Virus record (IMG/VR): IMGVR_UViG_2751185958_000012
DNA: 6,929 bases
Source: a virus
Lineage: Duplodnaviria; Heunggongvirae; Uroviricota; Caudoviricetes
Reading direction: 5' to 3' (one strand)
Positions 1,187 through 6,929 of the stretch are shown piece by piece (the first letter of the stretch is position 1; each line of letters begins with the position of its first letter). The translations under genes were made by a program, and so were the position numbers. The notes beneath the pieces were generated by a model. It saw nothing but the letters and a program-made list of their open reading frames with translations, had not been told where the DNA came from and searched no databases.

Positions 1187-3465
<2,279 letters not shown>

Positions 3466-3471
3466 AGGGGG

Positions 3472-3494
3472 ACTAAACTATCACTATAGGGAGA
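3472..3494 (+). promoter_or_regulatory. T7-class promoter-like sequence P2: ACTAAACTATCACTATA|GGGAGA, +1 at 3489
   Basis: The 14-mer TCACTATAGGGAGA is identical to T7 consensus positions -8 to +6. The upstream specificity region (-12 to -9, ACTA) differs from T7 (CGAC). Lies 29 bp downstream of P1 on the same strand. Confidence 0.7.
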
Positions 3495-3845
3495 GACCCT
3501 AAGTCCCCCCGGCTTAATACAGCCACCGACCCACACATTCATTAAATCTCAGGCTTCCGGTAGCGGACCGATTGGAAACCATCCGCAATAAGCCTAGTGT
3601 TAAATCACCTTGGCCTGAGACCATTCCCTTTAACGTAGCAATCTCTCTCCTTTGACAGGCGGAGAACATCAGACCTCAGCGGAACTTCCGTCTATGAGAC
3701 CATCGGTGTGCGAGATTGTGAAGAACCAAGACATCATTGCTGAGGTCTGCCATCCATTGTGGACAGGCGGAAACTCAAAGAGGTTAGACCAGTAGTGGTG
3801 TCTGAGGTCGGACTTTGAGTCCTGACCAGCAGGCTGGAGGAGACC

Positions 3846-4028
3846 ATGAGTTTATCTTGTTATGGATTGTGTTATCACAATTCCAATAAGAAGAACTTTA
3901 AGTCCAGCCTCCACTCCCGCCAACCCGAAGTAAACTATGGTCGCTATGATGTGGTCTCCATGCTTCGGGTCTTACTGGAAGTACTGAACACTTTCGCGTC
4001 AAGTTCTCCGAAGTTCATTCCTGTTTGA
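3846..4028 (+). CDS. Hypothetical small protein, 60 aa
   Basis: Strong Shine-Dalgarno GGAGGAG (3836-3842) with a 3-nt spacer before ATG 3846. Sits about 360 nt downstream of the tandem phage-type promoters. No recognisable domains; could instead be part of a structured leader RNA. Confidence 0.4.
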   Translation: MSLSCYGLCYHNSNKKNFKSSLHSRQPEVNYGRYDVVSMLRVLLEVLNTFASSSPKFIPV

Positions 4029-4050
4029 CTAAACTATCACTATAGGGACC
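4028..4050 (+). promoter_or_regulatory. T7-class promoter-like sequence P3: ACTAAACTATCACTATA|GGGACC, +1 at 4045
   Basis: A 22-nt exact repeat of P2 (3471-3492 equals 4027-4048, GACTAAACTATCACTATAGGGA). Abuts the stop codon of ORF 3846-4028. Confidence 0.7.
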
Positions 4051-4102
4051 ATATCTCGCCTCTGACCTCCTGAGAGACGGCAAGCGAGAAACCGTGGTCC
4101 AC

Positions 4103-4116
4103 GCTAGCAAGCTAGC
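4103..4116. repeat. 14-bp near-palindromic motif GCTAGCAAGCTAGC, copy 1 (two GCTAGC palindromes separated by AA)
   Basis: Exact 14-mer is repeated at 5503-5516. Copy 1 lies 58 nt downstream of the P3 +1 position. Confidence 0.5.
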
Positions 4117-4364
4117 CACCAGCCTAAGGCAAGACAGCCTCTGGTCAGCCTGTGTGTTCTTTGGTCTCGTGACTTAAGTCTATCACCACACACGCTCGGA
4201 CATGCTGTCGAACCTTCATCTCTATGGTCATCGCAGACCACTAACCCCAATTACCTCAAGTCATTCTGTTTGCGTCCTGTTGCCTGCTGGTCTCCCTTTA
4301 CGTGGGGGCTTGAGTAGGTCAGTGGGGTGCGACTTCAGGGTGCAAACAAAAGGAGTACACGTAA

Positions 4365-4397
4365 ATGACCCAACAAGAAATCAGCGTCATTAACTGA
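4365..4397 (+). pseudogene. Probable native 5' end of the Rha-like gene (MTQQEISVIN), cut off by the IS629-like insertion
   Basis: AAGGAG RBS at 4351-4356 with an 8-nt spacer before ATG 4365. The ORF runs only 10 codons, to a TGA that is the first three bases of the IS terminal repeat (4395-4397). Same reading frame as the downstream Rha-like ORF. Confidence 0.4.
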
Positions 4398-4631
4398 ACC
4401 GCCCCGGGAATCCTGGAGACTAAACTCCCTGAGAAAGAGGTAAACAGGATGACTAAAAATACTCGTTTTTCCCCCGAAGTCCGTCAGAGGGCGATTCGTA
4501 TGGTTCTGGAAAGTCAGGGCGAATATGACTCACAGTGGGCGGCAATTTGTTCCATTGCCCCAAAGATTGGCTGTACACCGGAGACTCTGCGTGTCTGGGT
4601 ACGCCAGCATGAGCGGGATACCGGAGGCGGT
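4395..4631 (+). mobile_element. IS3-family (IS629-like) left-end fragment, about 237 bp: terminal inverted repeat plus the first ~61 codons of orfA
   Basis: Begins TGAACCGCCCCGGGAATCCTGGAGACTAAACTCCC, which matches the IS629/IS1203 left end as I remember it. Encoded N-terminus [61 protein letters not shown] is the HTH part of IS629-type OrfA. Similarity stops near 4631; the breakpoint is placed from memory and is approximate. Confidence 0.75.
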
Positions 4632-5336
4632 TCAAACCTCGACCAGCTTGTCTCCATGACCTCAATTGAAATTGCTGAGCTGACAGGCAAGGAGCACCGA
4701 AATGTCCTGCGTGATATTCGCAATATGGCTGAGGAGCTTAACGCGCTCAAAACTGAGCAGTGCTCAAAACTGAGCAGTCATATCGGGGTGACTAAAGATG
4801 TTTATCTAAACGCGCAGGGGAAACAGCAGCCTCTGTACCGTCTCGACCGTAAGCATACTTTTATTCTGGTCGCTGGCTATTCCGTTCACCTCCGCGCCAA
4901 GTGTTACGACCATATTCAGACGTTAGAGCGTCGAGTCCTTCAACTGGAAGACCAGAAGAAGCGAGCAGCCATTCAGTCTGCTAACCGTCGAGGCGTGACT
5001 TGGGGCGACTACTGCAAAACCTATGATCTACCCGCTCAGAAGCTAATGACCGCACTTCTCCAGCATCGTGGCCTCTTTCGTAAGAACCCAATCAGTAACG
5101 AGTGGTCTGTAAATCCGAAGTATTCCGACTGCTTCCGTATCATTAAGCCGTCTGACCAGAAGTTCTCAGCAGGTGGTTATAACTTTCGCTTCAACGCTAA
5201 GGGATTGGAGGTCTTCGGTAAGCCTGCGATAGTCGATAAACTGCGAGGCATCCTTATTGCCTTCACTGGCACCGACCAGCAGAAGCAAGAGCATCTCCTG
5301 AAGCAGGCCCAATCCGGCAAGCTGGAGGGACTCTAA
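4449..5336 (+). CDS. Chimeric ORF, 295 aa: IS629-like OrfA N-terminus (aa 1-61) fused in frame to a Rha / KilA-C (ANT) phage antirepressor-like protein (aa 62-295)
   Basis: Rha signature [22 protein letters not shown] ... [43 protein letters not shown]-terminal KilA-C/ANT-like segment [44 protein letters not shown]. The start codon and RBS are IS-derived. Confidence 0.8.
4745..4778. repeat. Perfect 17-bp tandem direct duplication (GCTCAAAACTGAGCAGT x2) inside the Rha-like ORF
   Basis: Units at 4745-4761 and 4762-4778 are identical. The unit length is not a multiple of three. Confidence 0.9.
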
Positions 5337-5649: not shown

Positions 5650-6141
5650 ATGTTATTCAACAACAACGAATGGAAACTGTCAGTCACCGACATCGACCTT
5701 TACGCAAATACTTGCAAGCTGGACGGTCAGTCCTATCCGTTGTCGCTCGCTATCAAGACCCTCATTCCGGGCTATCTGTCAGGCCTGCCGTCTACCAGCC
5801 GCGAGGCAATGGAGTTACTGGAAGCTCTGGCTGAAGCTGGTGTAGCTATTGGCAACTTCTTCAGTAATGACCTGCTGACCGCCTACCAACGCCGCCAGAT
5901 GAATAAGCGTGTCGAGGCTGAGCGTATCGCTAAAGAGCTGGCGTCTCAGAAAGAGCGTACCCGCGAAATGTTCATGACCGAAGACGAATGGCAGAAAGAG
6001 CTACAGCGCCGCGAACAGGTCAAAGCTGAACGCCGGACATATGGTGAGAACCTCCGCAGTGCTACCCATTCCGCTGGTCGCTCACGTGCATCAATTATGG
6101 CTGACCTCGATAGTGGCGCTAACTGGATGGACAGCTTGTAA
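5650..6141 (+). CDS. Hypothetical protein, 163 aa from ATG 5650 (six-frame ORF begins at 5569); charged, probably coiled-coil C-terminal half
   Basis: AAGGAG at 5634-5639 with a 10-nt spacer before ATG 5650. No RBS precedes the 5569 ATG. Lys/Glu/Arg-rich helical-looking segment RRQMNKRVEAERIAKELASQKERTREMF. No family recognised. Confidence 0.6.
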   Translation: MLFNNNEWKLSVTDIDLYANTCKLDGQSYPLSLAIKTLIPGYLSGLPSTSREAMELLEALAEAGVAIGNFFSNDLLTAYQRRQMNKRVEAERIAKELASQKERTREMFMTEDEWQKELQRREQVKAERRTYGENLRSATHSAGRSRASIMADLDSGANWMDSL

Positions 6142-6224: not shown

Positions 6225-6479
6225 ATGACCATGACAAAAGACGCTTTACAGTTTGGCATTGAGCCAGTTCGCATTACTGATACTGACAACATGCAGGTAA
6301 ACGAAGGTCTCCCGACTAACGCCGACCCTCAGGTCTATGCCTTCCAGTTAGCTAAGCTGGTGAAGACCATGCTCAATTCTGTACTTAAAGACGCTCAGGA
6401 TAACATTCCGTTCCCTGTAGAAGTCCTGCCGACCCGTAACAGCTTACCGACTCCAATCATTGCTCACACTCTGGCTGGG

Positions 6480-6482
<3 letters not shown>
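6225..6482 (+). CDS. Hypothetical protein, 85 aa; probably a 5' gene fragment truncated by the downstream IS insertion
   Basis: AAGGAG at 6209-6214 upstream of ATG 6225. The stop codon TGA (6480-6482) coincides with the first three bases of the IS3-family terminal repeat TGAAGTGG. Confidence 0.5.

Positions 6483-6929
<447 letters not shown>

Follow-up and report, generated by a model that had tools for sequence, protein, structure and literature searches.

Among described elements, the small phage satellites PICMI, cf-PICI, P4 and PLE most closely resemble the chromosomal island analyzed here, with which they share an integrase, a tRNA gene as the seat of the attachment (att) sites, a cargo gene for defence against phages and helper dependence, induction by a helper being implied in the island by its helper-type promoters. 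The island lies in a stretch of Escherichia coli chromosome of 6,929 nucleotides (nt), IMG/VR virus record IMGVR_UViG_2751185958_000012 (the window), and its region 3489-4364 consists of two noncoding stretches, a structured RNA referred to as RNA1 and the 5' untranslated region (5'-UTR) of a following gene, referred to as leader 2, both downstream of promoters of the type found in T7-like phages. Like cf-PICI the island has a putative capsid protein of its own, and its size of 6.4 kb is comparable to that of PICMI. Unlike these satellites, its expression is tied to T7-type phage promoters and its inferred helper is a virulent T7-like phage; it has no recognised terminase, portal or replication gene, and it includes a large noncoding RNA module. 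It looks like an undescribed satellite of T7-like phages, and a full-text literature search found no satellite described for that group.

The RNAs can be compared with several phage systems. T7 late mRNAs use stabilising stem-loops and ribonuclease (RNase) III-type processing sites, and the late mRNA leaders of the T7 group share with the island a phage polymerase, 23-bp promoters, transcripts starting with GGGAGA, 5' stem-loops and long imperfect hairpins between transcription units. RNA1 differs from them in lying on a chromosomal island, in forming ~350 nt of multi-domain structure without an attached gene, and in having no match in 50,697 phage records. The immunity region of P4 (CI RNA, seqA/seqC) is likewise a satellite's long untranslated structured region following a main promoter and containing a repeated short motif, but the P4 repeats pair with a small RNA of the same leader, whereas no reverse-complement copy of the repeated RNA1 motif ACAGGCGG was found in three islands; in addition, the island promoter serves the helper's own polymerase, and there is no Rfam match. 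The prohead RNA of phi29 is another phage-associated structured RNA, made together with capsid proteins and forming a ring on the portal through loop-loop pairing between molecules, and phi29 capsid chains are among the fold matches of an island protein. RNA1, however, has no sequence or Rfam similarity to prohead RNA and is 2-3 times longer, and the island has no portal or packaging ATPase; the one weak hint of a phi29-type RNA is a 4-nt loop palindrome (UUAA; UCGA in Rouxiella). A packaging role for RNA1 by likeness to phi29 would be speculation.

Phage-type promoters

The sequence CACTATAGGG is present exactly at 3453, 3482 and 4038, positions that place transcription starts at 3460 (P1), 3489 (P2) and 4045 (P3); one more match, with one mismatch, is at 783 in the chromosomal flank. 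The promoters are as follows.

3443-3465, + strand: P1, a phage-type promoter of a second specificity (AAAACCCACACTATAGGGGGA), start 3460
3472-3494, + strand: P2, start 3489; 25 of 25 nt identical to phi10 (20817-20841), the major capsid promoter of phage EcoDS1
4028-4050, + strand: P3, start 4045; 22 of 22 nt identical to phi6.5 of Kayfunavirus EcoDS1

The phage-type promoters proposed in the initial annotation are thus genuine, the identity of P2 and P3 to helper-phage promoters being complete over the matched lengths. They follow the 23-bp T7-group consensus (-17 to +6) and are oriented to drive the downstream sequence, and the 17-mer promoter core is found in ~40-kb T7-like contigs, with 8-10 copies per Kayfunavirus (K1F-like) genome. 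The long distances reported to follow them also hold, with 357 nt from the P2 start to an ATG at 3846, and 306 and 320 nt from the P3 start to the AGGAG at 4351 and the ATG at 4365 respectively. Neither a sigma-70 promoter nor an intrinsic terminator was detected in 3300-4500.

The upstream half of P1 differs from that of P2, and other islands have T3/T7-like versions there (ACCCACACTATAGG, ACACCTCACTATAGAGG, ACCCTCACTATAGGG); the closest matches of P1 are promoters in ICP3/N4-type and T3-like phages. Since the specificity of P1 differs and varies, the island may be responsive to T7-like phages of more than one group. The run of G residues between P1 and P2 ranges from about 4 to 12 G among islands. 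Several islands have a second T3-like promoter just 5' of P3, echoing the layout of P1 and P2, and a second tandem promoter pair follows RNA1 in loci L235, L240 and L269.

Coding potential of the region

The initial annotation saw no convincing open reading frame (ORF) in either stretch, and comparison of homologues bears this out and extends it to the frame that it had taken as the first plausible gene start, which is broken across homologues and is not conserved as a gene.

3846-4028, + strand: 'ORF60', a frame open in this copy only, with no Pfam match

This is the only ORF in the region with a good Shine-Dalgarno (SD) sequence, a strong GGAGGAG five bases 5' of the ATG. Its homologues have 34, 42, 60, 66 or 90 codons, with frameshifting indels of 1 and 2 nt and TAA stops, and the ATG is absent in loci L040 and L233. 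In these two loci the sequence around 3862-3890 (29 nt) is nevertheless identical, out of frame and without a start codon; because the 29 nt are kept in another frame, conservation acts at the nucleic-acid level. As there is no conserved reading frame, and no conserved short protein fills it, all of 3489-4364 is noncoding.

RNA1 is a conserved structured RNA

The covariation analysis called for in the initial annotation gives compensated, strand-specific pairing in both stretches downstream of the promoters, and the pairings are conserved in homologues. For RNA1, an alignment (A2) of 22 sequences over 3530-3900 was folded with RNAalifold and yields 99 consensus pairs, of which 22 have changed on both sides; shuffled alignments give 11.3±1.4 doubly changed pairs (0 of 500 reach 22), and sliding the partners by 1-3 columns leaves 1-5. 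Paired cells amount to 98.3%, compared with 93.4±0.3% in shuffles. The single-sequence fold of 3489-4042 has a minimum free energy of -181.7 kcal/mol, against -155.2±6.4 kcal/mol for shuffles (z = -4.16). G-U pairs make up 13.5% of paired cells, and as each would be an A-C mismatch on the other strand, the folded molecule is the + strand RNA. The region thereby shows both properties expected of a structured noncoding RNA in general, namely compensation above controls and no conserved frame, and we are highly confident that RNA1 is a conserved structured RNA. A scan of the whole window with Rfam 15 (E<=1), also called for in the initial annotation, matched only tRNA-Gly at 979-1049, and neither RNA1 nor leader 2. 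The components of RNA1 are listed below.

3489-~4028, + strand: RNA1, structured noncoding RNA with a conserved core at 3546-3898; more variable over the first 55 and the last 130 nt
3546-3621, + strand: domain 1, a closing helix 3546-3555/3612-3621 around a 3-bp helix 3559-3561/3592-3594
3563-3566/3583-3586 (inside the 3-bp helix) and 3597-3599/3606-3608, + strand: hairpins of domain 1; compensated pairs are in helices 1, 3 and 4
3567-3581, + strand: conserved loop ACCGAUUGGAAACCA of domain 1
3634-3723, + strand: domain 2, helices 3638-3645/3712-3719, 3646-3653/3658-3665, 3666-3673/3703-3709 and 3675-3678/3695-3698, and an inner hairpin
3654-3664, + strand: first ACAGGCGG motif, in domain 2
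3729-3803, + strand: domain 3, helix 3729-3737/3795-3803 around 3741-3751/3766-3777 and small hairpins
3763-3791, + strand: segment ACAGGCGGAAACUCAAAGAGGUUAGACCA of domain 3, nearly unchanged in Serratia and Rouxiella while the flanking stems differ
3813-3840, + strand: candidate SD-sequestering helix in which CUUUGAG pairs with the GGAGG 5' of the ATG at 3846; weakly supported, with one-sided changes only
3848-3898, + strand: domain 4, a long imperfect hairpin with the core GGAUUGUG-UUAU-CACAAUUCC at 3864-3884
3924-3969, + strand: 3' hairpin CCCGAAGUA...UGCUUCGGG, read from the sequences

Comparison by eye with the Rouxiella and Serratia versions of RNA1 shows most stems replaced by other sequences that still pair, with the unpaired motifs kept. 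In domain 1 of Rouxiella all four stems are changed yet pair, and the ACCGAUUGGAAACCA loop is retained with one base inserted. Domain 2 has 10 pairs changed on both sides, occurring as two sequence versions (9 and 13 sequences) of one structure, with the pair 3676:3697 being U-A, G-C or A-U among homologues and Serratia having what by eye is a third version. The 21-mer core of domain 4 is identical in all 38 retrieved loci, part of which were selected with that exact 21-mer; in islands found independently through their proteins its loop varies and the stem is kept (Serratia, Rouxiella and locus L264). The 3' hairpin is replaced by ACACGAUGU...ACAUCGUGU in L040 and by ACACGAUG...CAUCGUGU in L233.

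The segments that remain constant while the stems vary are unpaired or form loops; they are ACCGAUUGGAAACCA, UUUAACGUA, the two copies of ACAGGCGG, GGCGGAAACUCAAAGAGGUUAGACC and the AUUGUG/CACAAU hairpin. Both ACAGGCGG copies of the Rouxiella locus L265 (5651-5660 and 5754-5763) have the same A-to-G change, which would fit a common partner, as seen in this single lineage. The loop of the small domain 1 hairpin (window 3597-3608; ~5593-5605 in L265) is a 4-nt palindrome, UUAA in E. coli and Serratia and UCGA in Rouxiella; it could allow loop-loop dimerisation, and it may be due to chance.

Two pairings named in the initial annotation fared less well. The complementary segments AGACCTCAGC and GCTGAGGTCT do exist, each one base from where they had been placed (at 3671-3680 and 3739-3748), and a perfect 10-nt inverted repeat is expected by our own estimate ~0.4 times by chance in 876 nt. 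Their pairing is not conserved, 13 of the 22 homologues having AGACCACATC or a near variant in place of AGACCUCAGC (two or three positions differ) with the partner uncompensated. The hairpin placed around 3808-3822 (at 3809-3821) is specific to this copy. The bases of both lie in other helices, the covarying 3675-3678/3695-3698 and 3741-3751/3766-3777, and 3813-3819/3834-3840, whose changes are one-sided.

Leader 2 ends in a pseudoknotted element

4045-4364, + strand: leader 2, 5'-UTR of the first promoter-driven gene, with a stem-loop at its 5' end (4046-4100) and a conserved element at its 3' end, the part between them being variable
4255-4347, + strand: pseudoknotted element with helices a (4255-4260/4309-4314), d (4268-4279/4336-4347), b (4283-4289/4320-4326) and c (4292-4296/4304-4308)

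The 5' strand of helix a lies outside d and its 3' strand inside b, so that a crosses both b and d and the element is a pseudoknot. Pairs were counted by script on anchored strands in nine distinct sequences; the MAFFT alignment (A4) misregistered the helix strands. The 10 inner pairs of helix d are paired in every sequence, with 2 compensated positions, helix b (7 pairs) has 4 compensated positions, helix a (6 pairs) has 2, and helix c is invariant. The element ends at 4347, three bases before the SD sequence AGGAG (4351-4355) of the ATG at 4365. It is present in essentially all islands and in about 7% of complete E. coli genomes (373/5426), and these last ~95 nt are conserved 5' of different first genes. 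The most probable role of the pseudoknot is to set or gate the start of translation at the first promoter-driven gene. A mimic of the helper's concatemer junction was also considered and rejected: the EcoDS1 junction reads CTATCTGT, and the similar motif in leader 2 is one strand of the covarying helix d.

RNA1 is an optional module

Of 5426 complete E. coli genomes, 169 contain the region, which was absent by BLAST from all 50,697 phage records; BLAST of an intact island against the same records returned only the promoters and a short match to a Rha-family gene. Among the 5426 genomes the RNA1 core occurs in 163, the capsid-like gene in 309 and the leader 2 element in 373. A metagenome scan added 21 loci to give 30 distinct versions, and a 15-mer scan of genome contigs was too unspecific, only 1 of 120 loci matching the region in BLAST. 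Homologues with compensated strand-specific pairing are found in E. coli, Salmonella, Enterobacter, Rouxiella and Serratia, the relatives of the island's 163- and 329-amino-acid (aa) proteins having led to RNA1-bearing islands in Salmonella Typhi, Serratia and Rouxiella.

An island in Citrobacter koseri is without RNA1, P1 and P2 being joined directly to leader 2 (L268), and L264 has a different ~300-nt sequence in the place of RNA1, with only a similar hairpin kept. The genes next to RNA1 also vary, and include RAZR, an unrelated 202-aa protein and an HNH endonuclease, so RNA1 is not tied to one adjacent gene. As there are islands without it, the downstream genes do not need RNA1 for their expression. 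RNA1 has promoters of its own and occurs in roughly half of the islands, and so behaves as an RNA gene that is separate and optional. The initial annotation had suggested leader RNAs, processing sites or regulatory RNAs; noncoding, conserved structure is indeed present, and on balance the first stretch is probably an RNA gene in its own right and not just a leader.

The island and its genes

The window is E. coli chromosome, with actS/ygeR at 121-900 and tRNA-Gly(ccc) at 979-1052, followed by the small island. The intact copy in locus L002 has an integrase and is bounded by 17-bp repeats of the tRNA-Gly 3' end spaced 6375 bp apart, so that the whole island there is 4589-10963 (6.4 kb). Its genes are, in order, the integrase, a DUF4145 protein of 219 aa and, after ~920 nt without an annotated gene, the Rha-family gene, a small ORF, the 163-aa protein and the 329-aa protein. 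The corresponding genes outside the noncoding region of the window are these.

1187-2794, + strand: integrase of the island, beside tRNA-Gly(ccc) 979-1052 (attL)
2787-3446, + strand: RAZR / PD-T7-4 (zinc finger and DUF4145 HEPN RNase), stopping just ahead of P1; PD-T7-4 match E = 1.3e-102
5650-6141: 163-aa protein, helical and charged, directly 5' of the capsid-like gene, the position of the scaffold gene in T7
6225-6482, + strand: first 85 codons of the capsid-like gene (329 aa), interrupted here by an insertion sequence (IS) and intact in L002 at 9534-10523

Reading of the sequence indicates that the window copy is damaged. The left end of an IS3-family element at 4394-~4628 is fused in frame into the Rha gene to give a chimeric ORF (4449-5336), and an IS911-like element at 6483-6929 truncates the capsid-like gene. 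The Rha gene of locus L027 contains an IS end at the identical position. The Rha-family gene also contains a perfect 17-bp tandem duplication, GCTCAAAACTGAGCAGT x2, at 4743-4776 of the window and 8067-8100 of L002. Sequenced strains such as O26:H11 str. 11368 carry the island, with an intact copy in strain ARL09/232, and its exact promoter sequences are found in sequenced Kayfunavirus phages.

Two integration sites are used, glyU and a site within ynfE/F, with different integrases, and two cargo positions hold different genes. Islands in the ynfE/ynfF selenate-reductase region are L233, L237, L238, L240, L040, L263 and L267; among those examined (L237, L238 and L240) the integrase product accession differs from that of the glyU islands. 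In the Rouxiella locus L265 more than 100 bp of the left end of the island recur after attR (3078-3200 and 9541-9661), which suggests a tandem or remnant second element. The 6413-bp contig L266 was considered as an excised circle and rejected, its circular appearance being accounted for by this repeat in the chromosomal copy L265.

The gene at 2787-3446 encodes RAZR, an HEPN RNase that is activated on assembling around the portal ring of T3 or T7 (PMC13017515). The paper that first reported it as PD-T7-4 (Vassallo 2022, PMC9519451) noted that the gene 'often overlaps an integrase gene'; the two overlap in this island as well. In contrast to that locus taken by itself, RNA1 is also found in islands where other genes stand in for RAZR. 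A published anti-T7 gene sits in an island whose remaining genes run from T7-type promoters. By term search, integrase, satellite, genomic context and noncoding RNA do not come up in the Nature 2026 RAZR paper (PMC13017515), nor does the term 'T7 promoter' in the 2022 paper (PMC9519451).

The 329-aa protein has no annotation in the examined records. Sequence searches with it (Pfam, NCBIfam, PHROGs, PADLOC and PDB sequences) and the 163-aa protein (Pfam, NCBIfam, PHROGs and PADLOC) were uninformative, and a profile comparison of the 329-aa family with EcoDS1 gp10A gave no signal. AlphaFold modelling of the 329-aa protein gave a predicted local distance difference test score (pLDDT) of 35 with a shallow alignment, and of 80.9 with distant relatives from a profile search. 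With this model, Foldseek returned 214 PDB matches at E<=0.001, the best 50 of the 214 all being capsid or encapsulin shells (one an engineered nanocage), with modest template-modelling scores (0.3-0.5). A comparison with viral models agrees, the best viral match being the capsid protein of a T7-like Pseudomonas phage. The protein is accordingly predicted to have the HK97 capsid/encapsulin fold. The 163-aa protein, which is widespread in the Enterobacterales (Salmonella, Enterobacter, Yersinia, Serratia, Photorhabdus, Kluyvera), would be scaffold-like from its position and its helical, charged character. No portal, terminase, protease, packaging ATPase or replication genes were recognised on the island.

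Proposed function and alternative explanations

We propose that RNA1 is the gene of a trans-acting, protein-binding RNA and that leader 2 is a 5'-UTR that sets translation, a reading to which we give an even chance as a whole. Both RNAs would be made only when a T7-like helper supplies its RNA polymerase, of the Kayfunavirus type and probably, through P1, of a second type. Because P2 is the promoter of the helper's capsid gene, RNA1 would accumulate to high levels late in infection, where we infer that it acts in trans by binding a protein. Its likely contact sites would be the ACCGAUUGGAAACCA loop, both ACAGGCGG motifs, the GGCGGAAACUCAAAGAGGUUAGACC segment and the AUUGUG/CACAAU hairpin, held in place by the variable stems. 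The partner may be a helper or island protein that acts late, for instance in capsid assembly, in packaging or in controlling the phage RNA polymerase or RNase, and binding would favour the island over the phage; any particular partner is a tentative proposal at best. The 5' stem-loop of leader 2 would stabilise the transcript, as in T7 late mRNAs. Antisense action against the helper was examined and rejected: the longest EcoDS1 match outside the promoters is 13 nt, at chance level, and the lack of a complement in helper or island argues against it.

Several points weigh against this proposal. The structure of RNA1 was derived from the same alignment on which the pairs were counted, the alignments are mostly from one genus, and most of the compensated pairs of domain 2 stem from its two sequence versions, so that the independent events are fewer than the cells. 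The protein partner is conjectural, and a DNA operator would be an equally good reading of the invariant domain 4 hairpin. RNA1 has only an approximate 3' end, no T7-type terminator is recognised, and P2 transcripts may run into leader 2. Finally, 4043-4367 as a whole is no more stable than shuffles (z = -0.48), although its 3' 95 nt do show compensated helices.

The strongest alternative, which we consider unlikely, is that both stretches are only cis-acting parts of a long phage-polymerase transcript that provide stabilising stem-loops and RNase III-type sites, RNA1 having no function of its own. That no terminator was found between RNA1 and P3 makes read-through likely, the 5' ends of both transcripts form stem-loops, and the hairpin at 3848-3898 is a long imperfect duplex of the general type that RNase III cuts, all in keeping with this explanation. 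In about half of the islands, however, RNA1 is missing although leader 2 is there and the downstream genes are the same; RNA1 is served by promoters of its own and is followed by another promoter set, and a multi-domain structure of ~350 nt with invariant unpaired motifs far exceeds what a processing site needs.

It is rather improbable that the conserved features instead act as DNA, be it as operators bound by an island protein, as a replication origin primed by the phage polymerase, or as a mimic of a packaging site or concatemer junction. Tandem promoters resemble the primary origin of T7. The sequences GACC/GGTC, the core of T7 primase sites, occur at 18.7 per kb across the island and at 26-28 per kb in 3489-4364; the corresponding values are 8.2 for shuffles, 12.2 for EcoDS1 and 1.9 for the chromosomal flank. 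This excess may mark T7 primase sites or point to an origin from a T7-like genome. The inverted repeat ATTGTG...CACAAT keeps its sequence without change and does not covary, and TTCTGTTTG (4264-4272) is similar to the class II pause signal found at the concatemer junction. Against these, the compensation is strand-specific and G-U-specific and points to RNA, and the pause-like motif lies within helix d and covaries with its partner (AUCUG/CAGAU versus GUUUG/CAAAC); moreover, comparison with the helper's terminal repeat and junction revealed no similarity, the region does not have an AT-rich composition, and islands without RNA1 exist.

For leader 2 alone, we regard as very unlikely that the pseudoknot is a ligand-sensing riboswitch gating late-gene translation on a metabolite or nucleotide signal of infection. 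Its compact form of ~95 nt, its invariant junction bases, its end three bases before the SD sequence and its conservation 5' of unrelated first genes are all compatible with such a role; no Rfam riboswitch matches it, however, no alternative SD-sequestering fold was identified, and no ligand can be proposed. A more specific role for RNA1 in particle takeover, in which, made from the capsid promoter of the helper, it would bind the portal, terminase, scaffold or the island's HK97-fold protein and steer assembly or packaging to the island in the manner of phi29 prohead RNA, seems to us a very long shot; if true, no RNA of this sort would have been known from a satellite before, and no satellite from T7-like phages. 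Scarcely credible is that the region encodes small proteins, such as the 60-aa product of 3846-4028 or shorter peptides, since, in spite of the strong SD sequence five bases before the ATG and the near identity of the first ~29 codons in most copies, homologues have frameshifts, early stops and lost ATGs, L040 and L233 keep the same 29 nt out of frame with no start codon, the SD sequence is predicted to be paired, and there is no family match.

Implications

T7-like phages are among the best-studied viruses, yet no satellite of them came up in the literature searched. The island has a new layout, in which a small element is placed on its helper's promoters and combines a known anti-T7 defence gene, a capsid-fold gene of its own and a large RNA without a known family. 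Should the pseudoknot of leader 2 gate translation, about 7% of complete E. coli genomes would contain a new regulatory motif, and a trans-acting RNA1 would add a novel type of RNA to the contest among phage, satellite and host.

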